NCBI GenBank assembly: GCA_029866025.1
Contig: JARXAD010000006.1
Coordinates: 18,907 to 82,906, forward strand
Direction of reading: 5' to 3'
Length of the DNA stretch: 64,000 nt
From: Vampirovibrionales bacterium
GTDB taxonomy: Bacteria > Cyanobacteriota > Vampirovibrionia > Vampirovibrionales > Vampirovibrionaceae
The notes under the pieces are model-generated. The model saw nothing but the letters and a program-made list of their open reading frames with translations. It was not told the origin of the DNA and searched no databases. The position numbers were made by a program, and so were the translations under genes. Shown piece by piece: positions 22,118 to 41,000 of this stretch; within the stretch, counting starts at the first letter, position 1; every line of letters starts with the position of its first letter.

Positions 22118-23395
22118 TTGTTTGTAGACGATGAGCCCAACATTCTCAATGCCCTGAGGCGTGTGATGCGTTCCTCTGGCGGCTTCTCTGGTGATTGGGA
22201 GATAGAAACCACCGATGACCCAGAAGCAGCCCTTCGTATGGTGGAGCGAGAATCGGTTGCTGTTGTGGTCTCAGATCAGCGGATGCCCAGCATGGTAGGG
22301 TCCGATTGACTGGAGGCCATACGCCTTAAATCGCCCCAAACCCGCCGCATGATTTTAACGGGCTACGCCGATATGAATTCTGCCATGGATGCCATTAACA
22401 AAGGCGGTGCCCACCGGTATTTGGCCAAGCCGTGGGATGACGAGATTTTACGCCAAGCCATTTATGAAGGTGTGGAACAGTATCGTTTGGCGCAAGAAAA
22501 CTTTCGTCTCAAAGTCTCGTTAGAAAAGAAAAACGAAGCGCTGGTGCAGTTAAGCCGCACCATGGAGCGGAAAGTAGTGGAACGCACTCAAGATTTAGGG
22601 TCACTGAATGAACGCCTGCAATCGGAGCTGAAAGGCGTTATCCAACTCTTGCTTAAACTGGAAGAATCCCACAGTGTCACGGTATTTGGCCACAGCAACC
22701 GAGTGTTTGAATGGTCGACACGGGTGGGTGAAGCCCTGGGATTGAGTGAGGAAATGCGTTACCAGCTGGGGGTAGCCGCCCAGCTGCATGATATTGGCAA
22801 AATTGGGCTACCCTTGGCATTGCTATCCAAGCCCATGATGGTGATGTCTCCCTATGAAAAAAGCGTGTACCAATCCCACGCTGCTCGTGGGGCCGATTGG
22901 TTGGCGCAAATCCCTCAGTTTAAACTATCGGCGTCGGTTGTTCGCTACCACCACGAGCTAATGGACGGCAGCGGCTTTCCGGAAGGGCGCGTGGGTAAAG
23001 AAATCCCCTTAGGAGCCCGAATTTTGTGCGCCGTGGATGCGTTGGATCAGTGGCTACAAACGCAACCGGTTTTAGATGCCGAAGCGGTGCGTGAAGGTTT
23101 ACGAGTGTTGGAGGCCGATCGCAACCTACTGTATGACGGAGAGATTTTGGATGCCTTGCGCCAAGTAACCAATGTGTATATGCCCCTCAATCCCGTCATT
23201 CAAGAAGTAGCCCCCTCCGCCATTCAGGAAGGCATGATACTGGCCCGAGATTTGGTAACCAGCCAAGGGATGCTGGTACTGAAGCAAGGCAGCGTAATAA
23301 CCCCTTACAATTACGATAAAGTGGTGAGCCTTTTGCGCAAACAAACCCCTTTGGATGGCGTGTACGTGTACCAACCCGTGAATTTGAAGGTGTAA
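22118..23395 (+). pseudogene. HD-GYP-domain response regulator (RpfG-like c-di-GMP phosphodiesterase) interrupted by in-frame TGA at 22307-22309
   Basis: REC domain split as ...DQRMPSMVGSD*LEAIRLKSPQTRRMILTGYAD with alignment preserved across the stop, so a single-base nonsense change; downstream HD...HHELMDGSGFPEG HD-GYP motifs intact; only a TTG start upstream. Confidence 0.6.
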
Positions 23396-23742
23396 CAATG
23401 GAAATGAAACGACCTATTACTAATTTATTTAGACTTAGGCGCCAATGAATGATGCCTTTCGAACGACCTTCACCAGTGGCCAAGTGATCTCTCGGCTGGT
23501 GCTAATGGCCCTCCATTCGAGGGGCAGGTCACAGACGCATCGTTGCAACATCCTCCAATTTGTTAAGCAACTCTAATAAAAGCAATTGCGAAAAGGGTTA
23601 CAACCTTGGTTGATCATTAATTGTGCCACCCAGTTAGGGTTACTATCCCCCATTAGAGGGAGGGCTGGTGGGGTATTGGCCTTGGGCGTGGATTCATTAT
23701 CCTATGGGTAGGTATTTGTCCCTACGGAAAGAGAGCGCCTTT

Positions 23743-24282
23743 ATGATAGCCACTTCCTGTTTTGCAGCTAACATTATGACCACTCGTCTGATTACGCTCC
23801 ACCCTGACATGACTTGTCAAGATGCCGTTCAGGTGCTGCTCAATAATCACATTTCAGGGTCACCCGTTGTCGATTCGTTCGGAGAACTCGTCGGCGTCAT
23901 TAGTCTGAAGGATTTACTTGGAAATAGTGAATACCAGCTGCCGTCACCTATGTATTACGACGAATTATATTTAGATGATCTCATGACGGAAGAGGCCTTT
24001 GATTTGGTGAATTTAAACACCGGAACGGTGTCTGAGCTAATGACCTTGGACGTTGTAACAGTGGTACAAACAGCCCCCATAGAAACCGTGGCTAAAGTGC
24101 TTTACACCCAAAAGGTGCACCGAGTGATTGTGGTGGCCGAAGGGGGCAAGCCTGTAGGCATTGTTACTACCTTTGATGTACTGAAAGCTTTTACAGGTGA
24201 CAGAGACACTTTAAAAGAACCTTTGCGAAAGGGTTCCTTGCCATCTGTACCCACTAAAATTCCAACAGGGCTGGGTGTATAG
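23743..24282 (+). CDS. CBS-domain pair protein
   Basis: Two CBS-like repeats (IMTTRLITLHPDMT..., VSELMTLDVVTV...); start moved to ATG 23743 with GAGAG upstream, the longer ORF from 23668 lacks signal features. Confidence 0.65.
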   Translation: MIATSCFAANIMTTRLITLHPDMTCQDAVQVLLNNHISGSPVVDSFGELVGVISLKDLLGNSEYQLPSPMYYDELYLDDLMTEEAFDLVNLNTGTVSELMTLDVVTVVQTAPIETVAKVLYTQKVHRVIVVAEGGKPVGIVTTFDVLKAFTGDRDTLKEPLRKGSLPSVPTKIPTGLGV

Positions 24283-24318
24283 TGCTGTTATTCATGTAAT
24301 TGTTTAAAAAGCCCCCCT

Positions 24319-25563
24319 ATGTCTCATTCATCTTCCCCTCTTTTTACGGATGCCCAAACCAAGGAGTCGCTACTCGGGGACGAGCAACTGCGTCATATTC
24401 AGTATGCGCTAGATGAATCGGCGATTGTTGCTGTAACCAACCCACAGGGTGTTATTACCTATGTCAATGATACGTTTTGTGCAATTTCTGGCTATGAGCG
24501 AGATGAACTCATCGGCGCCACTCACAAAGTAATTAATTCGGGGTATCATGGCCCCACTTTTTTTAAAGAACTGTGGGGTGCCATCCGTGAATGCAAGGTG
24601 TGGCGGGGCGAAATTCAGAACCGCGCAAAAAACGGAAAACCTTATTGGGTTTCTACAACCATTGTACCCAAGTGCCAAAAAGAACTCGGCCATGCACTAG
24701 AAACCAATCACCGCCCTCAGGAATACACAGCTATCCGTTTTGACATTACCCCGTTAAAGCGTGTGGAGGTAGAAATTCAGGGACTATATAACGAACTTGA
24801 CGAGCGAGTCCGCCAACGTACCGCTCAGTTGGCCTCGGCTAACGCCGAGTTAGAAACCTTATTAGAACGTCTGCAAGAAACGGAACACCAGCGGGAACGT
24901 TACGTGGCTGCTATTACCCATGATTTGCGAACGCCTCTGATTGGCCAGCAGAGGGCTTTAAGTATTGTGGCCAAACATCAGCACTTGCTGCCTCCCTCGG
25001 TACAGCCTTTTTTACACAGCATGGCTACCAGTACCGATCATACATTGGCGTTGGTACAAAAACTACTCGATGTTCACCACCTCGAATCGGGCCACGTGGT
25101 GCCCGTACTTCAATCGATACGTATTAGAGAATTGATTGATAGTGCTTTTGCCGACGTGCTACCCTTGGCCAGTGAGCGAAATATTGCATTAACGAATGAT
25201 ACTGACCCTGTAGAACTATTGGCAATGTTAGATCCTCGACTGATTCGAAGAGTGTTGGTTAATTTGTTGGGCAATAGCCTGGCTTTGCCCGCATGCGCAA
25301 AAATTACCGTCTCAGCGCGATCTGTAACCAATGGTTTGCAGCTAACAGTATGCGATGACGGCCCAGGTATTGAGGCCGAACGATTACGCAATTTGTTTGA
25401 GAGACACTGGGGTGAAAAAACACGCCAAATTGGGTCGGGCTTGGGTCTTAATATTTGTAAACTCATTGTGGATCGTCACAATGGCACACTAACGGTTACT
25501 AGCAATACCTCGGGCCTTCATCGTGGTACCCGTTTTGTTATGACGCTTCCCAATCAACGTTAG
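24319..25563 (+). CDS. Cytoplasmic PAS-domain sensor histidine kinase
   Basis: PAS S-box (IVAVTNPQGVITYVNDTFCAISGYERDELIG...), H-box ITHDLRTPLIG, HATPase_c (GSGLGLNICK); no TM segments. Confidence 0.85.
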   Translation: MSHSSSPLFTDAQTKESLLGDEQLRHIQYALDESAIVAVTNPQGVITYVNDTFCAISGYERDELIGATHKVINSGYHGPTFFKELWGAIRECKVWRGEIQNRAKNGKPYWVSTTIVPKCQKELGHALETNHRPQEYTAIRFDITPLKRVEVEIQGLYNELDERVRQRTAQLASANAELETLLERLQETEHQRERYVAAITHDLRTPLIGQQRALSIVAKHQHLLPPSVQPFLHSMATSTDHTLALVQKLLDVHHLESGHVVPVLQSIRIRELIDSAFADVLPLASERNIALTNDTDPVELLAMLDPRLIRRVLVNLLGNSLALPACAKITVSARSVTNGLQLTVCDDGPGIEAERLRNLFERHWGEKTRQIGSGLGLNICKLIVDRHNGTLTVTSNTSGLHRGTRFVMTLPNQR

Positions 25564-25585
25564 AAAAATTTCAGGAGGTTTTCGA

Positions 25586-26254
25586 ATGACCCGCATACTG
25601 CCCCTACGCTTATTGATTGTGGAAGACCACGAATTAGTCCGCCAAGGCTTGGCTTACACCCTAAACGAACACGGCTTTGAGAGCATTGACTGTGTAGACG
25701 ATGGGAAAAAAGCGCTGGAGCGTTGTCAACAACAAGAAAATCGTCCAGAACTTATTTTAATGGATATTGGCTTACCGATACTGGATGGTATTAGCGCCAC
25801 ACAGGCTATTAAAAAAACAGCACCGGACGTTAAAATTATTATGCTCACCTCTCACCAAGACCCTATGGAAGTGCGAGCAGCCTTAACGGCTGGGGCCGAT
25901 GGTTATTGCCTCAAAGACATCCCCATTGAACGACTGTGCCGCGTGATGGAAGACCTAATGGAAGGCGGCCTATGGTTAGACCCTGCCGTAGCCCAAGCCT
26001 TGCAACAGTGGATTGTGGCCATTCCCAACCACCCTGGCGTTAGCCCCGAAGCAACCCCTGACCCCGGCTTAACGGAACGCGAGCGCGAAGTACTGGCCGA
26101 AATTGTGAACGGCAAAAGCAATAAAGAAATTGCGGTGTATTTGGGCATGTCACCCCACACGGTAAAAACCCACGTCACCAACGTCATTCAAAAACTGTCA
26201 GTTACGGATCGTACCCAAGCCGCCGTAAAAGCCATTAAGCAGCAGTTGGTCTAA
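25586..26254 (+). CDS. NarL/FixJ-family response regulator (REC + LuxR-type HTH)
   Basis: LLIVEDHELVRQGL...LMDIGLP receiver; C-terminal LTEREREVLAEIVNGKSNKEIAVYLGMSPHTVKTHV LuxR HTH. Confidence 0.85.
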   Translation: MTRILPLRLLIVEDHELVRQGLAYTLNEHGFESIDCVDDGKKALERCQQQENRPELILMDIGLPILDGISATQAIKKTAPDVKIIMLTSHQDPMEVRAALTAGADGYCLKDIPIERLCRVMEDLMEGGLWLDPAVAQALQQWIVAIPNHPGVSPEATPDPGLTEREREVLAEIVNGKSNKEIAVYLGMSPHTVKTHVTNVIQKLSVTDRTQAAVKAIKQQLV

Positions 26255-26450
26255 ACCAACTAAACACTGTGGGTTCACAAGCCGCCTTTTAACAATGCTT
26301 CGGACTTTTTAGGGTTTTTTTTCGTACCCCAGGACCTAACCAACAGCGTTTTGGTATTATATCCAGCGAAAGCGTAAAGAAAAACGCCGCTTTCCTTTAG
26401 GAAAAGGATGCCTGATTTACCAGCATGGTAATCAACGAGAGATTGGTGTG

Positions 26451-27812
26451 TTAATGCATCTCGGGTTGAGGTTTTCGCAAGGTGGCTAAATACGTGGCCA
26501 ACGCATCCACTTCATCAACAGTACCTGCCACTGGCGGCATAATGCCCATGTACGGGTTTTTGGCTTTATCGGTACTGTGAATGGTGGTGAGGAAGGCCAC
26601 AATGGCTTTCTCATCCCGTTCGCCTAACATATTGGGCATACTTCGGTACCCACCCTTGGTGTGGCATGCCAAACACTGCCCTTCAAACATAGCTTTACCC
26701 ATGCGCATTTTATTACCAGCCACGTCGCCTTCAATCAACTGAGGCTTCCATTTACTGGTGGCAATGTAACCCGTCTCATTAATAGTTTTGATATCGCTAA
26801 TACGCAAGCCGTTGGAATACAAATGGCCATACACCACGTAGGGTTTTCGCAGCATTTCGCGAGACCATTCGCCTATGCTAGTAACCAACAACCCGCATAC
26901 CATAAAGGCCAAGGCCATTTTGGGCGTAAAAACCCGTGGGTTTAAGTACGGCCCCACGTAAGCAAAAATAATAATGGTGCCAGAAAGAATAAGGCCCAAA
27001 TACGACGCCCGCGCCAAAATGGAAAAGTTACCCACCCCCGACGTTTGCATGCCATTTTGAATAGTGTGCAACACATCGGGCGGAATGTTAAGGCCAAACC
27101 ACCACGCCAGCACAGGGCCTACTGCAAAGGTGGGGATAAACCACTTGGCAGCATATTGCAGCATCCGATCCCGAAAGCTAGCCTCTGCTTCTGTGGTTTG
27201 AGGTAATTTACTGGCCGTGTAAAGAGAATACATCCCAGCCATGCTGGCCATAATCACAATACGAATAAGCAACGAGGGCCAGTAGGTTCGGTTAAAGAAG
27301 CCATCAAACCAGTAGCCCGTTTGGATCCATTTATCCGGCGTGAGCATAAAGGTTAGAATACCGTTGATAATAACCAGCGTGAGAATAGAAGCAACCGCGT
27401 AAGCAATGGCCAACTGCAAGTGAGTTTTCCGAGAGACTCGATCCCAGCAGTAGTAATACACAAACACTACCGCTAGTTCTGCCACAAAAAACAGATACTC
27501 ACACGCCCAGCCAAAGGTATACACTTGGATGAGAGTGTGCAGCCCGTCAGGGCTTACCAACGCAATGACCGTCCAAATACCCACCCCTGTTACGGCACCG
27601 GCCACGGTGGTTACCAGCATAAAAAATTGAGCGTGTTTTTTTAAGTAGTCATACATGGCCTCGTCGTTGTTTTTGTAGGCCAGCCATTCGCTTAAGGCAA
27701 AGTACAACCCGCCTCCCACGGCAAAGTGAGAGATAAAAATGTGGATGCAGGCCATAATGCCAATCAGCCACGAGCCGCCGAGAATCGGGATTTCCCAAAT
27801 GGGGTAGTTCAT
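26451..27812 (-). CDS. Polytopic membrane protein with C-terminal monoheme cytochrome c domain (last gene of the Rieske/cyt b operon)
   Basis: ~9 hydrophobic helices in first 330 aa; C-terminal CLACH heme-binding motif with downstream Met; family not recognised. Confidence 0.6.
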   Translation of the reverse strand: MNYPIWEIPILGGSWLIGIMACIHIFISHFAVGGGLYFALSEWLAYKNNDEAMYDYLKKHAQFFMLVTTVAGAVTGVGIWTVIALVSPDGLHTLIQVYTFGWACEYLFFVAELAVVFVYYYCWDRVSRKTHLQLAIAYAVASILTLVIINGILTFMLTPDKWIQTGYWFDGFFNRTYWPSLLIRIVIMASMAGMYSLYTASKLPQTTEAEASFRDRMLQYAAKWFIPTFAVGPVLAWWFGLNIPPDVLHTIQNGMQTSGVGNFSILARASYLGLILSGTIIIFAYVGPYLNPRVFTPKMALAFMVCGLLVTSIGEWSREMLRKPYVVYGHLYSNGLRISDIKTINETGYIATSKWKPQLIEGDVAGNKMRMGKAMFEGQCLACHTKGGYRSMPNMLGERDEKAIVAFLTTIHSTDKAKNPYMGIMPPVAGTVDEVDALATYLATLRKPQPEMH

Positions 27813-27868
27813 AACGCCAACGTCCTATTTACCAATGAAGTTTAAAAACTGAGAAATAACCAAAAAAC

Positions 27869-28969
27869 TTACTGAAAACCAAGGAAGGTAAAGAGAATCA
27901 TGCCTGCCAGCACAACACAGCCAAACCAGTGGTACAACTTACTCACACCAGTCCCTGGGGTTTTATCTACAAAAGGAGCCGAGGCAAACACCAAACCAAT
28001 GGCAGAAAAGAAGAGCAGGCCCGCCTGTTCACCTTCCAGCGGCCCCACATAGGCCGGAATCCCTTTGAGGAACTGGAACATTGCCAAGAAGTACCACTCG
28101 GGTTTAATACCCATGGGCGCGGGGGCTGCGGGGTCGGCCTGAGCCCCCAAGCCCCATGGGAACAGCGCCACCAAAGTGGCCACTAGGTTAATCACCAACA
28201 GCCACACCATGGCATCTTTTAACGCAAAGTTGGGGACAAAGGGCTCGGATTTCTTTTGGGCTTCCGGCAAGGCGTTATCGGCCTCTGGGCGGGAGATGCC
28301 GTGGGCTTGTACTAACCACAGGTGAGTTCCCAATAATCCTATCAGCGCCAAGGGCAACCCAATCACGTGGATTAAAAAGAACCGAGACAACGTCGCTTGC
28401 CCCACCACCTCGCCACCACGCAATAACGTGGCCATCATGGCACCAATTACGGGCACCTTGGATGTTATATCGAGGCCAATTTTACTAGCAGCGTAAGCCA
28501 CTTCATCCCACGGCAACAAATAGCCCGTAAAACCAAAACCCATGCACACCACCAGCAGCACCAAGCCCGTTAGCCACGTCATCTCACGAGGGGCACGATA
28601 GGCCTTCATAAAATAGGTGCTAAACATGTGAATAAACAGCGCCAAGATCAGCAAGTTAGCGCTCCAGCTGTGAAAAGATCGCACAAACCAGCCAAAATCC
28701 ACGCGGGTATTGATGTTAAGAATGGATGCATAGGCGGCATCAATGGAGGGCACATAATGTACCATCAACAACAGGCCGGTGACAAACTGAATGCCAATGA
28801 GCATAAGAGCAATGCCGCCCAAGTAGTACCACACACTGTGGGTATGCACCGGCACCGTTTTTTTAGCCACCATCGTCAATACAGGGCCCAGACCTAAACG
28901 ATCAATGAACCACCCTTTCAGGGCACAGTCACAATTAGCTTTAGAAGAACTGGCAGGAGGAACAGCCAT
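27869..28969 (-). CDS. Cytochrome b of a bc/b6f-type complex (short, b6+subunit-IV-length form)
   Basis: N-terminal WFIDRL b6-like segment, conserved His ligands in helices, PEWY motif (GIKPEWYFL); 366 aa, shorter than proteobacterial bc1 cytochrome b. Confidence 0.85.
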   Translation of the reverse strand: MAVPPASSSKANCDCALKGWFIDRLGLGPVLTMVAKKTVPVHTHSVWYYLGGIALMLIGIQFVTGLLLMVHYVPSIDAAYASILNINTRVDFGWFVRSFHSWSANLLILALFIHMFSTYFMKAYRAPREMTWLTGLVLLVVCMGFGFTGYLLPWDEVAYAASKIGLDITSKVPVIGAMMATLLRGGEVVGQATLSRFFLIHVIGLPLALIGLLGTHLWLVQAHGISRPEADNALPEAQKKSEPFVPNFALKDAMVWLLVINLVATLVALFPWGLGAQADPAAPAPMGIKPEWYFLAMFQFLKGIPAYVGPLEGEQAGLLFFSAIGLVFASAPFVDKTPGTGVSKLYHWFGCVVLAGMILFTFLGFQ

Positions 28970-29029
28970 GGAGCAAAGTCCTTGTACATAAAAAAATAGA
29001 GAGAATCAAAAAACAGGAAGAGCTAGACT

Positions 29030-29608
29030 TTAAGCCTTGGAAACAATAATGGAATCTTTTACAACCTCGGCTTTAAGTAAATCCAAAGGACGTGGTGGAG
29101 GACCTGCAATGTTAGTACCTGTGGCAGCATCATACTGGCCTCCGTGGCACGCACACCAAATATTTTTTTCGCCGGCGTTGTATTGCACCGTGCACCCCAA
29201 GTGGGTACACGTGGCGTTGTAGGCTTTATAGGTGCCATCGGGCAAGCAAATCAACAAAGCCGGAATACTACCAAACTGAAAATTTTTCGCACTGCCGGGC
29301 GGAAAATCCGTGGTTTTCCCCACCGTTACCGAAGACACCTGCGTGGCGCTGGCATCTGCGGTTCCCGATGACAAGTACTTAAAGAAAGGCGATGCGGCTA
29401 ATCCGGCCCACAACAAGCCCAACCCACCCAAGGCTACTTTTAAAAAACCACGGCGTGTGGGCTCTACCAAGGTGCCATCGCCCGGACGAAGATGGCATGC
29501 CATTTGTTGCTGCAATTGTCCACTCAAGGCAGCTTCACGAGGGCAATGCCCGGTGGGCTCTTGTGGCGTGTGATTGTCCTTTTGGTTATCTAAGGTCATC
29601 TCAATCAA
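29030..29608 (-). CDS. Rieske [2Fe-2S] protein with Tat signal; probable true start ATG at 29503
   Basis: RRGFLKVALGG twin-arginine motif; boxes CTHLGC and CACHGGQY. Confidence 0.85.
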   Translation of the reverse strand: MIEMTLDNQKDNHTPQEPTGHCPREAALSGQLQQQMACHLRPGDGTLVEPTRRGFLKVALGGLGLLWAGLAASPFFKYLSSGTADASATQVSSVTVGKTTDFPPGSAKNFQFGSIPALLICLPDGTYKAYNATCTHLGCTVQYNAGEKNIWCACHGGQYDAATGTNIAGPPPRPLDLLKAEVVKDSIIVSKA

Positions 29609-29637
29609 TCCTTGTAATAATCATTTTTCTAGAAGGC

Positions 29638-30846
29638 TTACTTGGCTTCGGGAAAAAAGCCTTTCCAAGCGGTTTTAATCAACCAGGTCAGGAAAATAAC
29701 CAGTCCCACGGCAATGATTAAAAAGGCAATAAGCAAATCCAGTTGCAACTTCACCGGCAACAAGTCTGGCGTAACCAAGGAAGCCAGATTGATGTAGCGA
29801 AGGATGGCACGCATTCCAATCATGCCCAAAATGGTAACCAAACCCAGCGACTGAGTAAGCACCATGGGCAAGCCTTTACCCGTTTGCCACGCCCACATCG
29901 CCATTACCAAACTTAAAACAGTGGTGGCTAAGCTGCCCATCATTAGAGGGGTTGCCACGGCGTGCTGTCCCATAAAGGCCAGCATTTGGGCTTTGGGCAA
30001 GCTCATTAAAAACCAACCGCCAATACCAAACTGCAACAGGGTAATCACGGCATACAGGGCCGCACCCGTTTTAATCAGCCATTGGCCATAGGCCAAATCG
30101 CGCTTTAAAAAGACCAGACCATAAATCCCCATCACCAAGCCATTGACGGCCAAGGAACCAAACCACATATGCAAAAAGCGAGGAATCACTTGCGGGTTGG
30201 CCACATTAAGGAACCAGCCCGTGCGGGTGGCACCTTCTTGCCAATGAGCGGTGTCCGTCATGAGCGTTACCATGTTGACAAAGCCGAAGCCAATAAAGGC
30301 AAACAGCAAGGATGACAGCAACAAATAGCCGACAGGGCCGACTTTAGTACGGTCTTTGACCGAAAATTTATAACCGTACAAGCTATAGTAAGCCACAATC
30401 AATACAGGAATGGCACTAAGCCAAGGCCACGCCTGTTGAACCGTAGATACATAATAGAGAGGACCATAGATAAGTTGCAAAAATAACAAGGGCACCACGC
30501 CTTGGGTAATGGCCACCGATAAATACACAGGCAAGTGAGCTGCCAAGGTGTTGCCAAACCGGGTGCCGTGGGGCGAACGCCCCAACAACCCTGCCGATAC
30601 CAAGCCGCCGGTTAAAATTACGTTCATGGGGATAAGGTGGGTAATAAAGCCTACCAGCAACAGCACTTGCAGCAGCCAAATGGGGGCAGGCATCGGCACT
30701 GGCTGATAATGAGGCACCATCGCGGCGGTAGCATGGGCAGCATCGGGGTGGAGAGGCCCAGAGAACAAGGCGGTGACAACAGACGAGAGCGAAGCAACAT
30801 CGGGCATGGATGATAGAACCCTACAAATACACACTGAAGAAAACAC
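29638..30846 (-). CDS. Polytopic integral membrane protein, first gene of the Rieske/cyt b operon (unknown family)
   Basis: ~10-12 hydrophobic helices, no cofactor motif recognised; 29-bp gap to the Rieske gene. Confidence 0.55.
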   Translation of the reverse strand: MFSSVCICRVLSSMPDVASLSSVVTALFSGPLHPDAAHATAAMVPHYQPVPMPAPIWLLQVLLLVGFITHLIPMNVILTGGLVSAGLLGRSPHGTRFGNTLAAHLPVYLSVAITQGVVPLLFLQLIYGPLYYVSTVQQAWPWLSAIPVLIVAYYSLYGYKFSVKDRTKVGPVGYLLLSSLLFAFIGFGFVNMVTLMTDTAHWQEGATRTGWFLNVANPQVIPRFLHMWFGSLAVNGLVMGIYGLVFLKRDLAYGQWLIKTGAALYAVITLLQFGIGGWFLMSLPKAQMLAFMGQHAVATPLMMGSLATTVLSLVMAMWAWQTGKGLPMVLTQSLGLVTILGMIGMRAILRYINLASLVTPDLLPVKLQLDLLIAFLIIAVGLVIFLTWLIKTAWKGFFPEAK

Positions 30847-31139
30847 TTTTTCAAATGCTAATTAAAAAGTTCGTATATGTAACAAGAATACTTTTTACTG
30901 TGACACAGGATTATGCATGAATGGATGCCCCAGCAGCCCTCGCCCAAATGGGTGAGGGGGAATTTGTGTCCAATTGCGTGGATTCGCACCAAAATAATTT
31001 ATAAATAGTAAAATTTCTAACCTATAGAATTGGACCACTAACCCCCTTATCCAACCCAGGTCAGAAGGGCGAGGTGTTTGAAAAAAATTTCAAAGACAAT
31101 GCCATGGTTTCCCTACAATAAATAAGAAGGTTTTCTATC

Positions 31140-31526
31140 ATGATTGTATTAGTACCCATCGATGGAGCAGAACAATCTTTATGCACCCTTGAAAGGGCCG
31201 CTCATTTCTTAGATAAAGAATTTTGTTCTCTTCATTTGTTTATGGTTCAAATCCCTATCTCGCCAGAAATTCCTTGGGAGCTGGAGGATAGCAAAGAAAC
31301 CGAAAGCTATCTAAACCGAGCAAAAGCCAAAGCAGAATCATTGGGATTTAAAGTTGATAAAACAGACTACACCACATCGTATAATCCAGCTGATATCATT
31401 TGCAATTATGCGGAAGCCATTGCTACGCAATTAATTGTAATGGGATCCCATTGGCATAAATGCATCACCCAGTTTTTCATCGGTAGTGTTAGCGAAGAGG
31501 TGTTTAAAGAAGCTACCAGCCTGTGA
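31140..31526 (+). CDS. Universal stress protein (UspA family)
   Basis: 128 aa, MIVLVPIDGAEQS...VMGSHWHKCITQFFIGSVSEEV typical USP fold signature. Confidence 0.8.
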   Translation: MIVLVPIDGAEQSLCTLERAAHFLDKEFCSLHLFMVQIPISPEIPWELEDSKETESYLNRAKAKAESLGFKVDKTDYTTSYNPADIICNYAEAIATQLIVMGSHWHKCITQFFIGSVSEEVFKEATSL

Positions 31527-31616
31527 TTGTGCGAAATGACAAACTACACTCTGCTAAAATTAGTCACTTGGATATCTCGAGTTTACATCAAATGAGTCAT
31601 TAATTAGTTAAACCCT

Positions 31617-32063: not shown

Positions 32064-33275
32064 TTAAACGCTGGCAGCAACCCGTAAACGCTGAGAGAGG
32101 AGTTCGGGTAACTTTAACAAGCGCTCGCGCGCCGCAGCCAAAGTTTCTGGTTTTTTGCTAAAGCAAAAGCGAATCATAGGCGCCTGTTGGCTGCCTTCGC
32201 TTAAAAAGCTGCTGCCCGGCACCACGGCCACACCCACGGTTTCAATCATAAACTGGGCAAAGTCCACATCGTTGGTAAAGCCGTATTGCTTGCACAACTG
32301 GCTAATATCACACAGCACATAATAAGCCCCTTGGGGTGAATAATAAGGCAGACCAATTTCATCTAAAATTTCCAGCATGGAGGCTTTCTTGTTAGCGTAG
32401 CTGGCTAACAGGCCATCATAGTATGTTTGGGGCAATTGCATGGCCGTAATGCCCGCTTGCTGCAAGGGGGCGGCAGCTCCTACCGTTAAAAAGTCGTGGA
32501 CCTTACGAATGGCAGCCGTCAGTTCAGCCGGGGCAATAATGGTGCCCACGCGCCAGCCGGTAACGCTGTAGGTTTTGGAGAGGCCATTAATCGTCACAGT
32601 GCGCTCTAACATACCGGGTAAAGAGGCCAATGCCAAGTGCTCAAGGCCGTCGTAGAGAATATGCTCGTAAATTTCGTCGGTAAAGGCCAACACATCCCAC
32701 TGCTGGCACAAGTCGGTAATGGTTTGCAGTTCTTTGCGGCTAAACACCTTCCCCGTAGGGTTATGAGGGGTATTGATAATAATGGCGCGAGTTTTTTCGT
32801 TAAAAGCAGCAGCCAACTCCGCCGGATCAAAGCTCCAGGTAGGGGGCTTAAGCTGCACATAACGAGGAATGGCACCGGCCAAAATGGCATCGGGGCCATA
32901 ATTTTCGTAATAGGGCTCAAAGACAATCACTTCATCGCCGGGGTCTACCAAGGCCAGCATGGTGGCCGCCATCGCCTCGGTACTACCGCAGGTAACGGTA
33001 ATATCCGTATCAGGATTAATGGGAATACCCAAATAGCGGCTGGATTTTTCTGCAATGGCATAACGAAAAGGGGTGGCACCCCATGTAATGGCGTACTGGT
33101 TAATGTCTTTATCAATGGCTGCTTTGGCTGCTTCTTTGAGTTCCGTCGGGCAAGGAAAATCAGGAAAACCTTGGGCTAAATTGACGGCCTCATGCTTGGC
33201 CGCTAAACGAGACATCTCGCGAATGACCGACTCTTTAAACTGGCTGGCTTTGATGGACGTTTTGGGTCGTGTCAT
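32064..33275 (-). CDS. PLP-dependent class I aminotransferase (methionine-salvage / YbdL-like)
   Basis: 403 aa aminotransferase fold with lysine region SKTYSVTGWRVG; divergent from mtnBDC. Confidence 0.8.
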   Translation of the reverse strand: MTRPKTSIKASQFKESVIREMSRLAAKHEAVNLAQGFPDFPCPTELKEAAKAAIDKDINQYAITWGATPFRYAIAEKSSRYLGIPINPDTDITVTCGSTEAMAATMLALVDPGDEVIVFEPYYENYGPDAILAGAIPRYVQLKPPTWSFDPAELAAAFNEKTRAIIINTPHNPTGKVFSRKELQTITDLCQQWDVLAFTDEIYEHILYDGLEHLALASLPGMLERTVTINGLSKTYSVTGWRVGTIIAPAELTAAIRKVHDFLTVGAAAPLQQAGITAMQLPQTYYDGLLASYANKKASMLEILDEIGLPYYSPQGAYYVLCDISQLCKQYGFTNDVDFAQFMIETVGVAVVPGSSFLSEGSQQAPMIRFCFSKKPETLAAARERLLKLPELLSQRLRVAASV

Positions 33276-33382
33276 GGCTGGGAAGTTCCTCGATTGAACT
33301 GAAAATAGCTTCTTATTGTATCGTAATCCAAATAATGACTGACAATATTGAGAAATGGATATCTTGGTGGCATTCTAAACCC

Positions 33383-34051
33383 ATGAATACTTCCACCACT
33401 CCCTTCCAACCAGTAGCCATTAGCGAGGCTCTTACTGAGCTTATTTCGGTATCCCAATTTTTGCATCAGCAAGGGTGGACGCCTGCCACCAGCTCTAATT
33501 TTTCTACCCGTAACAACGAACCAAAGGGCAGTTTTTTTATTTCTCGCTCTGGTAAAGACAAAGGCACCTTAACACAACACGACTTTATGGCGGTGGATGC
33601 AAAGGGGCTTCCCTTGGCAGGCGTGGAGGGTACCCCTTCTGCAGAAACCTTATTACATGCGTGGGTGTATGAGAATTTCCCCGAAGTCAATACTGTACTT
33701 CATACGCATTCGCTGAATGGCACCTTACTCTCTAAGCTGTGCGAAGAATTTGGCGAGTTTACGGTGTCGAACCTTGAAATTCTCAAAGGCTTTGCTGGTA
33801 TTACCAGTCATGAAGCCTCGGTGACGATACCCATTATTGCTAATCACCAAGATATGACGGTTATTGCTGAAGGCTTATCACGCTACCAAGCAAACGTAAC
33901 AAACCCACTCCGTGGGTTTTTACTAGCAGGGCATGGTCTGTACACATGGGGAAACACCACAGCTGAAGCCCGTCGCCACGTGGAAGTGATGGAATTTTTA
34001 ATGGCCTATGCCCTGCAATGGTACCAAAGCACGGGAGCATGGCCCGAATGA
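33383..34051 (+). CDS. mtnB: Methylthioribulose-1-phosphate dehydratase (class II aldolase/adducin fold)
   Basis: FFISRSGKDKG...VLHTHS motifs; start set at ATG 33383 (typical size) rather than 33269. Confidence 0.8.
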   Translation: MNTSTTPFQPVAISEALTELISVSQFLHQQGWTPATSSNFSTRNNEPKGSFFISRSGKDKGTLTQHDFMAVDAKGLPLAGVEGTPSAETLLHAWVYENFPEVNTVLHTHSLNGTLLSKLCEEFGEFTVSNLEILKGFAGITSHEASVTIPIIANHQDMTVIAEGLSRYQANVTNPLRGFLLAGHGLYTWGNTTAEARRHVEVMEFLMAYALQWYQSTGAWPE

Positions 34052-34617
34052 CAACCCTGTACCAAGCCCAATCCAAACACGTTGTAAGTGACTTTGGGAC
34101 CATTCAGACTTTTTTAGCCCAACGCGGCGTGGCTTTCGCTCGGTGGAATGCCAGTGTTGATTTTGAGCCTGATGCCGATGAAACCACCATTTTGGATGTG
34201 TATCAGCATGAATTACAGCCCTTCATGGCATCAAACGGTTTTCAAAGTGCGGATGTCATTACCATTCACCCCAAAACGGAGAATGTGGCAGCGTTGAATG
34301 CAAAATTTTTAAAAGAGCACACCCACAGCGAAGACGAAGTTCGATTTTTTGTGGCAGGGCAAGGCGATTTCTGGTTTCATTTGGAAGAGCCCACTGATGA
34401 AGTGTTTGGTGTTACCTGCACCGCAGGCGATTTCCTCTCCGTGCCGGCAGGGGTCAAACATTGGTTTGACATGGGCCCTGCCGATGACGAAACGTCGCCC
34501 AACGTTAAGGTGATTCGGATTTTTACCAGCAAAGACGGTTGGACCCCCCACTACACTCAATCAGGACTAGAACAAACCGTTGCAAAACCTTTATTAACAG
34601 CAGGAGCCACGGTATGA
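34048..34617 (+). CDS. mtnD: Acireductone dioxygenase (ARD)
   Basis: Cupin with HxH...E...H pattern (EHTHSEDEVRFF...HWF); ATGA overlap with mtnB stop. Confidence 0.8.
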   Translation: MTTLYQAQSKHVVSDFGTIQTFLAQRGVAFARWNASVDFEPDADETTILDVYQHELQPFMASNGFQSADVITIHPKTENVAALNAKFLKEHTHSEDEVRFFVAGQGDFWFHLEEPTDEVFGVTCTAGDFLSVPAGVKHWFDMGPADDETSPNVKVIRIFTSKDGWTPHYTQSGLEQTVAKPLLTAGATV

Positions 34618-35336
34618 GTTTAGCCAATCCCAACCGCTACGAGTCCATTCGCTGTGTACTGATGGACATTGAAGGCACCACGACTGATATTGAGTTTGTC
34701 CATTCGGTACTGTTCCCGTATTCGGCCCAGCATTTGCCCCAGTATGTAATGGACCACGAAGACGACACCACTGTACAAAAGTGCTTGCTAGGCGTGCGCC
34801 AAACCCTGCTAGACGAAAACGAAGTAACCGAGGCGCATACTCACACCTGCATTCAAGCCTTGCTCCATTGGATTGCCACAGACCGCAAGCACACCGCCCT
34901 GAAGACCCTTCAAGGCCTGATTTGGAAAACCGGTTACGAAACGGGCGCCTACCAAAGCCACGTGTACCCCGATGTACTACCCGCTTTACAGCGCTGGCAA
35001 GCCAAAGGGCTTACGCTCGCCATATACTCGTCGGGTTCGGTTGCGGCCCAGCAGTTGCTGTTTGGTCACACCCCCCATGGGGATTTAGCCCCCTACTTTA
35101 GCCACTACTTTGACACCACGGTGGGCGGCAAAAAAGAGATGGCATCTTATCAGGACATTGCCAAAGCCTTAGCACTCCCGCCAGAAGCCATTTTATTTTT
35201 AAGCGACATGGAAGATGAGTTGGAGGCCGCTGAAGAAGCAGGCTTTCAGGTCATTCAGTTACAGCGCGATGACAATGTGATTAGTGGTCATGTGCCTTAC
35301 CCCGTTAAGCGCAGCTTTGACGCTATTTTGCCGTAA
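34614..35336 (+). CDS. mtnC: Enolase-phosphatase E1 (HAD family)
   Basis: HAD motif I LMDIEGTTT; ATGA overlap with mtnD stop, RBS caggag. Confidence 0.8.
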   Translation: MSLANPNRYESIRCVLMDIEGTTTDIEFVHSVLFPYSAQHLPQYVMDHEDDTTVQKCLLGVRQTLLDENEVTEAHTHTCIQALLHWIATDRKHTALKTLQGLIWKTGYETGAYQSHVYPDVLPALQRWQAKGLTLAIYSSGSVAAQQLLFGHTPHGDLAPYFSHYFDTTVGGKKEMASYQDIAKALALPPEAILFLSDMEDELEAAEEAGFQVIQLQRDDNVISGHVPYPVKRSFDAILP

Positions 35337-35352
35337 TGGTTAACAACACCCT

Positions 35353-36831
35353 TTAGGATGAACAGCTAATAACCAAGGGCTTTGTGTCTACTGGGGGTGG
35401 GCTGGCAAAAGGCGAGGCATCGGCTTCCGTAGCATAGGGATTTTTCAGCACGTCCCACAACGCTTGGGTCACGCTAAAATCGCCTTGCTGAGCTGCCGTA
35501 ATGGCCGCTTGGGCATGGTGGTTGCGCAATACCACGGCAGGATTGCGGCTTAACGTGTAGCGCTTTAAGTCCTCGTCAGAAAGCTGACTGTTGCCATCAT
35601 TCGCTAAGCGATCACCATAGGCTTCCACCCACTGGTGCCAAGCGTCGGACTCACACCCAAACAAGGGTGCCAACGCCTCTTTCGCCAAATCGGCTGTTTT
35701 GTAGCTCCAACGCCTAAAAAACTGGGTGTAATCCACTTTATGAGCAGCCATTAACTTTAGGAGCGTCTCCAACAAGGCGTCGTCACCTTCCTGTACCGAA
35801 GATAACCCCAGTTTTCCAGCCATCAAAGAGCGGTAGTGGGTGAGATACGCCTGAGGATAAACCTTGAGGGCCTCTTGAATGGTCTCAACCGGTAACATAT
35901 GGGCCAAGGTTTGCCCCAAAGCGGCGCAATTCCAATACCCCACATCGGGCTGACGATGGTAGGCATAGCGCCCCTCATGATCCGAGTGATTGCAAATATG
36001 ATATGGGTCAAAGGTATCCAAAAAGCCGTAAGGACCATAATCCAAGGTCAGGCCCAGTAGGCTCATGTTATCCGTGTTCATCACCCCGTGGCAAAAACCC
36101 ACTGCCTGCCACTGGGCCATGAGTTGGGCTGTGTGTGTGGTCACCGCTTGCAACCAGGCCACACACCCCGCTTCACTGTCCTCAAAGGTTTCACCAAAGG
36201 CAGTACCGCAAATGTCCATCGCTAAGGTTAGATAGTTTTTCAGCAACACATCGTTGCCTTGATAATACGCATATTCCAAATGGCCAAAGCGCAAAAAGCT
36301 AGGAGCCACACGAACCATGCTGGCACCCATTTCCATCATTTCTCGGTATACGGGTTCGGTGCTGGTAAACAAACTTAGGGCCCGTGTTGTGGGAATACCC
36401 AAGCCCGCCACGGCTTCACTGGCTAAAAACTCTCGCAGGGTTGAGCGCAAGACAGCCCTACCGTCGCCTCGGCGAGAATACGGCGTTGGGCCAGCACCCT
36501 TTAGCTGAATTTCCCAGCGCTGGTTGGCAGAGTCTACCACATCACCCAAGAAAATCGCTCGGCCATCGCCCAGTTGTGGCACTAAATGGCCAAATTGATG
36601 CCCTGCATACACGGTGGCAATGGGTTGAGGTGAATAATGATTCAACTGGCCATTGCAGATGTCTAACCACTGAGGGCTGTTTAGCGCGCTAACACGTAAA
36701 CCCAGTTGCTGACCCAGTGCATCATTGTTTAACGCCAACTGGGCCCCTGTGAGGGGTGTTATGGAAACGGTTGAAAACGCTTCGGGGCCTAAGGCTTCGT
36801 AGCGGGTGGGGGTCGGCAGAAAGATTGGCAT
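35353..36831 (-). CDS. selO: Protein adenylyltransferase SelO/YdiU (UPF0061)
   Basis: 492 aa; conserved SelO N-terminal segment and pseudokinase-like core (GVMNTDNMS). Confidence 0.8.
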   Translation of the reverse strand: MPIFLPTPTRYEALGPEAFSTVSITPLTGAQLALNNDALGQQLGLRVSALNSPQWLDICNGQLNHYSPQPIATVYAGHQFGHLVPQLGDGRAIFLGDVVDSANQRWEIQLKGAGPTPYSRRGDGRAVLRSTLREFLASEAVAGLGIPTTRALSLFTSTEPVYREMMEMGASMVRVAPSFLRFGHLEYAYYQGNDVLLKNYLTLAMDICGTAFGETFEDSEAGCVAWLQAVTTHTAQLMAQWQAVGFCHGVMNTDNMSLLGLTLDYGPYGFLDTFDPYHICNHSDHEGRYAYHRQPDVGYWNCAALGQTLAHMLPVETIQEALKVYPQAYLTHYRSLMAGKLGLSSVQEGDDALLETLLKLMAAHKVDYTQFFRRWSYKTADLAKEALAPLFGCESDAWHQWVEAYGDRLANDGNSQLSDEDLKRYTLSRNPAVVLRNHHAQAAITAAQQGDFSVTQALWDVLKNPYATEADASPFASPPPVDTKPLVISCSS

Positions 36832-38093: not shown

Positions 38094-41000
38094 CTAGAAA
38101 AGAGGACCGCCCAAGCCAGCATTGCCAGACGGGTTACCGCCAAACTGTTGGGAATTTTGAACAGAGTCTTCGTTTAACGGAATGGTTGTGCCTTTAAATT
38201 GGTTGTTAATTTGGCTGCCCGAACGGCCTCTCAAATTACCCGCCAAGTTTTTCAGCTTGTTGCTTTCCTCACCGCCATCATCGTCTCCAGGTACGTTTAC
38301 AAAGGCAGACCCGTTGGGAGTAATCACTTTGAGGAACTTACCGCTAAACAAGCCATCGGGTAGTTTGGCATACAACAAGCCATCACCATTTAGCTCCACA
38401 TCCAAATCGCCAAAGCGCTGGGTATTAGTACCCACAAAACGAATGCCTGCCGATGTCGTACGATCGTCGGCATTGGTAGCACCGCCCGTATAGTACACGC
38501 TACGGTTGTTGGCCATACGTAAGTTCCAGCGACCCGCACCTGAATCGCTATTGGGTGTGGTTTCTTGAGTGGAGAAACGGGTATTGAAGGTGATGTCCGT
38601 TGCTGCTTTGGCACGTGCATCCAATAGACCCAAGTTAATAAGGCCATTGGTTTCCGAATCGCCAAAGAAGATGTCACGAGCCGTCAGATTGTCAAACTCG
38701 GTTTGAGTAATGTTTAGCAATCCAGAGCCACCGCCTAAGCCAAGGGTGGTATTGGCATCCCAAGCAGACAAGGTGATTTGGCCGCTTTCGGTACCAGCAT
38801 TTACCAAGCCTTGAATGTCTTGAAGGTTGGACTTAAACCAAATCAACGCATCATCGGCAGTGACGGTGGCACCTTCGCCAATGTTAATGGATGAATCTGA
38901 GTTCTCCGTAGTGACGGTCACACCATTATCGCCGTGGGTATCGCCATTGAGGTTGATATCACTGTAGGTTTGGCTGCCATCTTCAACGCGTTCTTTCTCA
39001 TTAGAGAAGCCACCGCCCTTGGTACGAATATCCACCTTGTTGCCAGCGTCAATGGAGCCACCGGCAATGAAGAAGCTTTCTTCTTCAAAGCGACCTTCAA
39101 AGAAAGGACCGCTAAAGCCTGTAGAGCCTGAACTGCCCGACGAACCCGAAGAGCCGCTGCTACCAATGGAGCCCCCTTGGGTAATGGGCGAGCCATTGCC
39201 TTCTGTGAGCAACGATACATTATTACCGGCGTAAATAGCACCGTTTTGGTCAATGCGGCTGTCATCACCATAGGAAATAAAGTTCACGTCATGGCCTGCA
39301 TCTACCACAGACCCTTGGCTACGATATTTAGAGTACCAGCCCATACCCGAGCCGCCTTCTTGGAGAATACGGCTGCTAAAGCCATCGGTGATGACATTAA
39401 TATCACCCGAAGAACGTACTTCAGAACGCTCAAAGAATCCTGTTGCACCTGAAGACCCAGAGGAACCGGACACTCCGCTACCACCGGTGCTGGCCGAAGC
39501 GCCCGAACTGTAGGTAGCCAAATAGCTATCGGAACCTAAGGTAATACTGCTGTAACTGCCTTCGGTGTGAACATCAATGTTGCCGTCTTCACTAATCACG
39601 GTGCCATTCACGTCAACAGGGGCATTGTAGCCAGTGGTTTCAATCCGCACATCGCCATCGGCATCCACATAAGAGCCACTATTTTGGTTGATACTGGCGT
39701 AATTGCCCGTGGTTTTTACTGTAATGCCATCCCCATAAACGCGGCTTTCTTCTTCCACATAGCCGCCGGTTTCCAAATCACTGCTTTCGCCCAAGGTAAT
39801 GGTACTGTCATCACCTTCGGTTAGCACATCAATGGCGCCTGCATAGCTGGTTATATCACCATTAATATCCACCGTGGCGTTACTGGCCAACGTGTTTACC
39901 AACACATTGTTGTCGGATTCAATAGCGGCTGTGCTGGTTAAGGTAATGTCGGAATTGGCACCTTCGGTAGCAACCGTCACACCATTGGTGCCTTCGGTAT
40001 AACCATTCAAGGTGATATCGCTATCCACTCCGGTCGTCACGCGATAAACCATACCACTCATGCCAGAACCACCGTAACCGCCGGAGGCACCCGATTCACC
40101 GCGACTCGTGGTTCCTTGGGTGCGAATGTCGACTGTGTTACCAGCTTCAATGGTGCCTACGGTTGTGGTGTAACCCGAAGCACCCGAGTAACCACTGTAA
40201 CCATAGTAACCGCTGTAACCTGAGGAACCCGAGCTACCGATCGATGACCCTTGAGTAATGGGCGAGCCATTGCCTTCGGTTAGCAAAGTTGCGTTGTTAT
40301 CGGCCACAACGTAGCCGTTTTGATCAATGCGGCTGGTGTCGCCGGTGGTTTTAAAGGTCACATCATTGACCGAATCCACCAATGAGCCAGCATTTTGAAC
40401 AATGGCGCTATCGGCACCCGTGGTGTTAAGGGTAATGTTACCCATACCCGCAGTAGCACCGGTAGAGCCTGAGTAACCACTCGATCCACTGGAACCCGTT
40501 GGGCCTTCATAGACAGCGGCGGCAACCATTTCACCGTCATTGCCGTAGGTGGCTAAATAGCTGTTAGCACCTAAGGTAATATCGCTATCTTGGCCTTCCG
40601 TTAGTACGTCAATGTTGCCATTGTCGCTGGTAACAGTGCCGTTTAGCTCAATGTCTGCGTTGTTATCGGTGGTTTCAATCAGCACATCGGCTTCGCCATT
40701 CACTTCCGAGCCGTTTAGCTGAGTAATACCGCTCTGTTTGTTGGTGGTGCGAATAATGATTTTACCGTCAGCGTCTTCACCCAACATAACACGCTTTACG
40801 TCACTAAAGGTGCTGTTGGTAATGGTGCTGTTTTCGCCCAAAGTAATGTCGCTGTCTTTTCCATGAGTGGCAATACGAACCAAATCATCGCCATTCACGT
40901 CGCCATCCAATTCAATGGCGGAATCTTTGGCAAAGGTGCGAATCACTGCATTTTTATCGGCATTCACATCGCTATTTTTGTACTGAGTAATGTCAGCGTC

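Follow-up and report, generated by a model that had tools for sequence, protein, structure and literature searches.

A Rieske/cytochrome b pair encoded between two cytochrome bd-superfamily subunits in Vampirovibrionales: a probable quinol-to-oxygen respiratory unit

Introduction

Which respiratory enzyme is encoded when the genes for a Rieske protein and a cytochrome b have no cytochrome c1 gene beside them and are enclosed by the genes of two large membrane proteins? This question is raised by a stretch of 64,000 nucleotides from a Vampirovibrionales bacterium (GenBank assembly GCA_029866025.1, contig JARXAD010000006.1, positions 18,907 to 82,906 of the forward strand), called the window in the following, in whose list of open reading frames (ORFs) four consecutive minus-strand ORFs fill positions 26451-30846. 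A sequence-only reading of the window had described these genes as a non-canonical Rieske/cytochrome b operon with two extra polytopic membrane subunits, neither of which it could place in a known family. The four co-directional genes with their motifs are present and the pair is indeed non-canonical, but the two flanking membrane proteins can be placed: they are the two subunits of a terminal reductase of the cytochrome bd superfamily, and not additional subunits of a bc complex. We consider it likely that the operon encodes a complex III together with a bd-type complex IV, which form one quinol-to-oxygen respiratory unit.

Results and Discussion

A four-gene operon recurring in 46 loci

The four genes encode, in the order of transcription, a partner subunit, a Rieske [2Fe-2S] protein, a cytochrome b and a CydA-like subunit, listed by NCBI as proteins MDH4379389-92, and they are separated by 29, 60 and 56 bp; the tight spacing seen in the sequence-only reading is thus right, while its range of 29-56 bp is slightly too narrow. 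A scan of a genome collection with the alignment of the partner family matched 192 stretches, from which 80 loci were retained. Among these, 46 distinct Vampirovibrionia-type loci carry the genes for the partner, the Rieske protein, the cytochrome b and the CydA-like subunit in this order on one strand, the exceptions being truncated contigs. Since the same four-gene order is found in 46 independent loci, the arrangement is far beyond chance. The motifs CTHLGC and CACHGG of the Rieske protein, PEWY of the cytochrome b and the single CLACH of the CydA-like subunit are invariant across all of them.

The last gene encodes a CydA-like subunit with a fused cytochrome c domain

The last gene of the unit (27812..26451, minus strand) encodes a protein of 453 aa with the NCBI product name 'cytochrome ubiquinol oxidase subunit I'. 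Its residues 15-182 match PF01654 (Cyt_bd_oxida_I) with an E-value of 1.5e-11 and 44 bits, well above the curated cut-off of 26.2, and its residues 369-445 form a cytochrome c domain (PF13442, PF00034). In the phmmer alignment, residues 9-161, i.e. the conserved first four-helix bundle (27330..27788, minus strand), are in register with residues 6-158 of CydA from G. thermodenitrificans (5doq_A), and H24, E105 and E112 fall on H21, E101 and E108 of that chain, which correspond to the haem ligand H19 and to E99 and E107 in Escherichia coli. By this alignment, E105 and E112 are predicted to be the glutamates of the proton channel and the haem-d site (E99/E107). The AlphaFold model (pLDDT 76.8) has eight transmembrane (TM) helices followed by a helical C-terminal domain, not about nine helices as had been counted in the sequence-only reading, and its 18 best PDB matches in Foldseek are all bd oxidase subunits. 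Since the N-terminus of CydA faces the outside and eight helices follow here, the haem-c domain is placed in the periplasm. This domain resembles cytochrome c6 (1a2s, E 2e-3) and contains the single haem-c attachment motif CLACH (C380, C383 and H384; 26661..26675, minus strand), as the earlier description had it; the protein is neither a cytochrome c1 nor a cytochrome c4.

Conservation follows the same residues. The residues of the first four-helix bundle (H24, E105, E112, Y119, Y121, H131 and T145) are kept in 76-78 of the 78 CydA-like homologues with a haem-c domain (the CydA-c family), and at least 75 of the 78 keep H24, E105, E112, H131, R184, the ExxRE motif of TM8 (E315, R318, E319 and R322) and the CxxCH...M pattern. 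The haem-c ligands, the two Cys, the His and M425, are kept in 77 of 78 homologues, and M425 is the probable distal Met ligand. These features are those of the OR-C family, for which Murali, Gennis and Hemp (bioRxiv 10.1101/2021.01.16.426971) give 8 TM helices, the lack of a quinol site and a periplasmic haem-c extension at the C-terminus. In Supplementary Table 6 of that work, the reference row for OR-C1a lists H24, E105, E112, Y119, Y121, H131 and S145. The 453-aa protein has all of the listed features with identical numbering (H24, E105, E112, Y119, Y121, H131 and T145), differing in T for S at position 145, and its operon also encodes a second bd-like membrane subunit. Judged from its sequence, it is a CydA-like subunit of the OR-C1a type within the cytochrome bd superfamily, which Murali et al. 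place in an oxygen reductase superfamily (bioRxiv 10.1101/2021.01.16.426971); an oxygen reductase activity with cytochrome c as the donor is predicted for it by homology.

The classical entry for quinol electrons is missing from this subunit. The only conserved His residues in its membrane part are H24, H29 and H131, and none is found in TM5, the site of haem b558 in CydA, across the 78 homologues, in which Ile or Val occupies the site that aligns with H186. The haem b558 ligands (H186 and M393) are therefore absent, and the AlphaFold model has no long TM6-TM7 loop (Q-loop). From the loss of the Q-loop and of the haem b558 His it follows that the CydA-like subunit would take its electrons from haem c and not from quinol. 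The missing haem b558 site could also be read in another way, namely that the bd-like module reduces a different oxidant in the periplasm or membrane, such as H2O2, NO or another small molecule, or mainly detoxifies, with the Rieske/cytochrome b pair supplying the electrons. The occurrence of homologues in anaerobes among genes for AhpC, rubrerythrin, Fur and thioredoxin agrees with such a role, and the searchable literature holds no assay of an OR-C enzyme. However, the residues of the O2 site and the proton channel (the equivalents of H19, E99 and E107) are strictly kept in 76-78 of 78 homologues, and the Vampirovibrionia with this operon belong to a lineage described as respiring aerobically (Matheus Carnevali et al. 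2019, PMC6349859; also a preprint). We regard an acceptor other than O2 as quite improbable.

The first gene encodes a second subunit with a bd fold

The partner subunit (P402) is encoded by the first gene, whose longest ORF (30846..29638, minus strand) has 402 aa and a GTG start. The NCBI call is shorter (389 aa, ATG at 30807) and named 'hypothetical protein', and a start at M43 (ATG at 30720, 360 aa) fits the alignment with 26 homologues best, so that the gene probably starts later than the GTG at 30846. The protein has no Pfam or NCBIfam match at E<=1, the CydB model (PF02322) included, and no meaningful sequence match in the PDB; the lone match there, a glycosyltransferase at E 0.015, was dismissed as chance. 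The AlphaFold model, built on a 27-sequence alignment, has 9 TM helices with a pLDDT of 91.9 and a pTM of 0.90, and its top 18 PDB matches in Foldseek are exclusively cytochrome bd subunits, with TM scores of 0.61-0.74 to CydA chains (0.74 to 5doq_A) and of 0.45-0.66 to CydB chains. Moreover, hhalign joins the partner family to the CydA-c family with 93% probability (E 2.7e-7) over about 190 residues and aligns the motifs TLMxxPxxW and xRxxLR, which both families have in common, and all-against-all BLASTP puts the two families in one component. By these comparisons, the partner and the 453-aa protein are remote paralogues.

The gene context points the same way. Distant homologues of the partner (24-34% identity) adjoin a gene with Cyt_bd_oxida_I and cytochrome c domains, in either order and sometimes with a 4-bp overlap, and one of the adjoining CydA-like genes (locus L002) encodes a multihaem version of 812 aa. 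The family is large, with 2,575 representatives at 50% identity having E<=1e-3 and 1,660 having E<=1e-10; all of its named members are 'hypothetical', and it has no Pfam model. On the basis of the fold model, the paralogy, the gene context and its recurrence across other phyla, the first gene encodes the second, bd-fold subunit of the oxidase. One could still take both polytopic proteins for novel accessory subunits, outside all known families, that have joined an unusual bc complex, and point to the lack of any Pfam, NCBIfam or PDB sequence match for the first gene. This view is hardly credible, since sequence and fold place both of them in the cytochrome bd superfamily, and since at least four other phyla have the two together where no bc complex accompanies them. 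Nor are they unrelated transporters that merely flank the pair.

The partner may also carry a cofactor. Its invariant residues are H70 (in TM1), N75, Q124, W142, Y153, Y157 and R223, with H226 and M342 nearly invariant; the channel glutamates E99/E107 have no counterparts, as is reported for the 'b-type' partner subunits by Murali et al. (bioRxiv 10.1101/2021.01.16.426971). The family profile matches CydA of G. thermodenitrificans weakly and non-significantly (domain E 0.04, full-sequence E 6.9), in register from the N-terminus, and this weak alignment puts H70 on H19, and H226 on H186, the haem b558 His. In the planctomycete loci L061, L066, L069, L072, L074 and L081, H226 is replaced by Leu or Met, and in the same loci except L061, where the C-terminus is truncated, M342 is replaced by Asn and R350 by Gln; in L021, a locus of the Vampirovibrionia type, Met and Phe replace H226 and M342. 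The joint loss of H226 and M342, roughly one evolutionary event, suggests a ligand pair, and the partner may hold a His/Met low-spin haem b that was lost by the catalytic subunit. None of the 84 family members examined has a CxxCH motif. A distant relative of 560 aa (P0342) has an extra hydrophobic segment or TM helix followed by a Tll0287-like domain with CLTCH, and this haem-c fusion suggests that the partner takes part in electron transfer. Fusions of the oxidase to bc proteins of the Rosetta-stone kind were sought as well and none was found; the extra length of the long family members is either the fused Tll0287-like haem-c domain or a tail without annotation.

A b6-like Rieske/cytochrome b pair without cytochrome c1 or f

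The Rieske protein (29608..29030, minus strand; 192 aa, TTG start) matches PF00355 (1.2e-13) and has a Tat-like RRGFL signal with a weak Tat-signal match. Its cluster motifs are encoded on the minus strand at 29192-29209 (CTHLGC) and 29138-29155 (CACHGG), and its best PDB relatives are Rieske proteins of the b6f type. The cytochrome b (28969..27869, minus strand), named 'cytochrome b N-terminal domain-containing protein' by NCBI, is a protein of 366 aa of the fused b6 plus subunit-IV type, which matches PF00033 (3e-47) and PF00032 (Cytochrom_B_C) and has its PEWY motif at 28091-28102 (minus strand). The N-terminal 228 residues are closest to cyanobacterial b6 (7r0w, E 8.5e-55), and full-length alignments to proteobacterial cytochrome b are weaker than this match. 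Two His pairs, H100/H114 and H201/H216, serve the haems, the latter pair with the 14-residue spacing of the b6 type, and a Tyr (Tyr49) stands in place of the haem-ci Cys of b6f; these His, the PEWY and Tyr49 are kept in 46/46 loci.

Compared with cyanobacterial b6f, the operon shares the b6-like N-terminal half of the cytochrome b with its His spacing and a Rieske protein closest to PetC, but b6 and subunit IV are fused, the haem-ci Cys is a Tyr and cytochrome f is lacking. A proteobacterial petABC operon differs by its cytochrome b of about 420 aa and its c1, whereas here the cytochrome b has 366 aa and is b6-like, and no c1 gene is present. Across the 46 loci, no c1 gene was found in or beside the operon, and neither a cytochrome f gene nor genes for small subunits accompany it among ORFs of at least 35 aa. 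Clustering of these ORFs did not give a fifth conserved gene either, such as a CydX- or PetG-like subunit or a cytochrome c, and all further conserved clusters are shadow frames inside the four genes. Since the Rieske protein, the cytochrome b and the partner have no CxxCH motif, the domain fused to the CydA-like subunit is the only c-type haem of the unit, as the sequence-only reading had noticed.

The Rieske/cytochrome b pair appears inserted between two oxidase genes

The two oxidase genes also exist without the pair. Outside the lineage, about 35 loci (from Terriglobia/Acidobacteriota, Holophagae, Planctomycetota, Chloroflexota and Desulfobacterota) have them side by side, with no Rieske/cytochrome b genes nearby, and in every non-Vampirovibrionia locus with a detected CydA-c gene, this gene adjoins or overlaps the partner gene. 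In neighbour-joining trees of both oxidase subunits, the Vampirovibrionia-type sequences form one clade nested among the two-gene loci, a pattern that fits a single insertion event, by which the Rieske/cytochrome b pair came to separate the two oxidase genes. The loci outside the lineage were picked by one peptide pattern, with a cap at 80 of the 192 matches, and given this sampling, a Rieske-linked OR-C may also exist in other lineages.

The four-gene loci come from genomes labelled Vampirovibrio, Vampirovibrionales, Obscuribacterales, Caenarcaniphilales, Melainabacteria and 'Cyanobacteria bacterium', these being the labels of metagenome-assembled genomes (MAGs) as deposited. Seven loci carry labels from off the lineage: the full operon in L006, L021, L016, L014, L025, L026 and L033 belongs to MAGs labelled Gammaproteobacteria or Proteobacteria or with oxygenic families, the latter being Coleofasciculaceae (two copies in one MAG), Drouetiella and Oculatellaceae. 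Either these are cases of mislabelling or mis-binning, or the operon extends beyond the Vampirovibrionia. As for the two-gene loci of the anaerobe type (L002/L003 and L005), L002 is surrounded by genes for a cytochrome c3, two AhpC-like proteins, a flavodoxin and a thioredoxin, and in L005 the oxidase lies among Fur and rubrerythrin genes. These surroundings are an oxidative-stress neighbourhood, and the reduction of O2 or of another oxidant fits the presence of AhpC, thioredoxin, flavodoxin, Fur and rubrerythrin beside such homologues.

Proposed electron transfer from quinol to oxygen

From these family memberships, the Rieske protein and the fused b6-like cytochrome b would oxidise quinol by a Q-cycle. 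Because no cytochrome c1 or f is encoded in the unit, the electrons of the Rieske cluster would pass to the fused periplasmic c6-like haem c, which would replace these cytochromes; gene content and synteny suggest this step, and it would require both halves of the chain to be held together as a supercomplex. The CydA-like subunit would then take electrons from haem c and protons from the cytoplasm via E105/E112, and its bd-type active site most probably would reduce O2 to water. The partner, whose fold and paralogy are given above, would be the pseudo-symmetric second subunit in the role of CydB or CydA', possibly with the cofactor discussed there. By textbook stoichiometries, adding a Q-cycle to the charge separation of bd would roughly double the charge moved per electron relative to a plain bd quinol oxidase.

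The same genes could instead specify two separate enzymes that are merely co-transcribed, in which a c1-less Rieske/cytochrome b complex reduces a cytochrome c that is soluble or encoded elsewhere and this feeds an independent OR-C oxidase, without any obligate supercomplex. In all known Rieske/cytochrome b complexes, the acceptor is a bound one, of the c type or equivalent to it, and we count this against such a scheme. Among ORFs of at least 35 aa, the 46 loci have no conserved cytochrome c gene accompanying the operon, and the Rieske/cytochrome b genes were inserted between the oxidase genes and not beside them, which favours co-assembly. On the other side, the two-gene OR-C enzyme occurs without Rieske/cytochrome b in other phyla, and a soluble cytochrome c has been proposed as the OR-C donor (Murali et al., bioRxiv 10.1101/2021.01.16.426971). 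Since OR-C stands alone elsewhere and such a donor has been proposed, the fused haem-c domain would predate the association and already work with external donors. Taken together, we judge two independent enzymes to be unlikely, though less so than an acceptor other than O2.

Several points nevertheless weigh against the operon being one quinol-to-oxygen unit of the kind proposed. The assignment of O2 as the acceptor is made by homology, and the searchable literature contains no biochemically characterised OR-C enzyme. The direct transfer from the Rieske cluster to haem c and the supercomplex are deduced from gene content, and this content is known for 64 kb, so that the rest of the genome could encode a c1-like protein or a cytochrome c, soluble or anchored in the membrane. 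The AlphaFold model of the 453-aa protein is moderately confident (pLDDT 76.8). The haem of the partner is derived from a non-significant profile alignment and from a joint loss that is essentially one phylogenetic event. With these points in mind, the strictest form of the proposal, an obligate bc:bd supercomplex in which a dimer of the b6-type Rieske/cytochrome b without c1 or f docks on the OR-C haem domain and the partner carries a His/Met low-spin haem, is put forward tentatively, at somewhat less than even chances.

Comparison with known respiratory systems

In actinobacteria, the bcc-aa3 system is an obligate III-IV supercomplex that works without a soluble cytochrome c, a bound c-type haem domain wiring the Rieske protein to the oxidase. 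Its PDB entries 6hwh and 7e1v are weak matches in the sequence search with the 453-aa protein. The system serves here as a working analogy and no homology is implied: its haem c belongs to complex III (QcrC) and its oxidase is of the haem-copper type, whereas in the operon described here the haem c belongs to a subunit of a bd-type oxidase. The archaeal CydAA' (qOR4a/qOR4b) and CydAB enzymes are alike in having two bd-fold subunits, the second of which is a degenerate paralogue that keeps the H19 equivalent and has no E99/E107 channel. They differ in oxidising quinol directly via the Q-loop and the haem b558 of subunit I; here this site is lost, and the aligned His/Met pair is found in the partner.

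Within the superfamily, Murali et al. (bioRxiv 10.1101/2021.01.16.426971) list OR-C in the phylum Cyanobacteria. Rieske proteins are not mentioned in their paper or supplements, where pet genes appear only with OR-N1 and OR-N5, and in the present operon the genes of an OR-C oxidase enclose the Rieske/cytochrome b pair. Like OR-C1b, the partner is a bd-fold paralogue whose gene is adjacent to that of the catalytic subunit outside the Vampirovibrionia and split from it by Rieske/cytochrome b here; compared by description only, OR-C1b differs in having 8 TM helices and CxxCH motifs, while the partner has 9 predicted TM helices and no CxxCH. OR-N1 and OR-N5a/b, found with petA/petB/petD in Nitrospira, Rubrobacter and Chloroflexi, similarly combine a bd-like oxidase without a quinol site and Rieske/cytochrome b in one operon, and the supplement of Murali et al. 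(bioRxiv 10.1101/2021.01.16.426971) infers that OR-N with pet genes uses quinol through the bc-type module. However, OR-N has 10-14 TM helices, keeps the H186 equivalent and has no fused haem c, in contrast to the 8 TM helices, the missing H186 equivalent and the fused c6-like haem of the operon studied here.

A complex III-IV operon has already been described in the same lineage (Soo et al. 2017, as cited; Matheus Carnevali et al. 2019, PMC6349859). This operon of aerobic Melainabacteria also places a b6-like Rieske/cytochrome b without f or c1 beside a terminal oxidase, but its petB/petC genes stand beside a C-family haem-copper oxidase (cbb3-type) and not a bd-type oxidase. Locus L039 bears the BJP prefix of the study of Matheus Carnevali et al. 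2019 (PMC6349859), in which neither the fourth gene nor the haem-c fusion nor the conserved arrangement is recognised. A preprint citing Soo et al. 2017 mentions only the III-IV operon, the C-family oxidase and two further oxidases under the name 'cytochrome bc oxydases'. As far as the literature can be checked, the coupling of an OR-C oxidase with a b6-like Rieske/cytochrome b in one operon and the identification of the partner family as bd-fold are new.

The OR-C branch is widespread, and the operon gives it a defined electron donor, quinol, for assays. For each electron, the proposed chain is predicted to conserve about twice as much energy as a classical bd quinol oxidase, and it may keep traits of the bd type, among them a high affinity for O2 and a tolerance of sulfide and NO. 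A large family of about 2,600 clusters receives an identity as a bd-fold subunit. Furthermore, whether a b6-type complex predates oxygenic photosynthesis in the phylum is a question raised by Matheus Carnevali et al. (PMC6349859), and a b6-like module without cytochrome f and haem ci that is conserved in Vampirovibrionia, a class that does not photosynthesise and is sister to the oxygenic cyanobacteria, bears on it. If the supercomplex exists as proposed, it also bears on the respiratory chain of the cyanobacterial lineage before or alongside b6f.

Neighbouring genes and other features of the window

Upstream of the operon, an AT-rich intergenic region (30847..31139) separates it from a divergent USP gene (31140..31526), identified by Pfam, and presumably holds the operon promoter. 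A scan of 26000-31600 for consensus promoters and terminators returned fewer sites than shuffled sequence and is uninformative on internal promoters. At the other end, genes for a PAS histidine kinase and a REC-LuxR regulator (24319..26254, plus strand) converge on the 3' end of the operon. The sequence-only reading had taken the USP gene and the PAS kinase/FixJ-like pair as signs of low-oxygen or redox control. The genes are real, but the USP gene, the kinase and the regulator recur in 2, 4 and 4 of the 46 orthologous loci, respectively; these neighbours are non-syntenic, and regulation of the operon by them is unsupported. The pair belongs to a signalling cluster at 22349-26254 (plus strand), which further includes an HD_5 (HD-GYP-like) protein and a tandem-CBS protein, and of which only the kinase and the regulator recur beside the operon, each in 4/46 loci.

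The remaining features of the window lie farther from the operon. A methionine-salvage-type cluster at 32064-36831 encodes a class I/II aminotransferase, a class II aldolase (MtnB-like), an ARD dioxygenase and a HAD enolase-phosphatase-like protein, and is followed by a gene for a SelO protein adenylyltransferase. An ORF of 2,620 aa at 38094-45956 (minus strand) has an N-terminal TPS secretion domain and resembles exoproteins of the two-partner-secretion/filamentous-haemagglutinin type; upstream of it on the same strand, an ORF of 626 aa (46179-48059) could be its TpsB transporter. Finally, an ORF of 2,871 aa at 8482-17097 (minus strand) combines a glucoamylase-like domain with GH94 supersandwich and GH94 catalytic domains and is similar to cyclic beta-1,2-glucan synthases.

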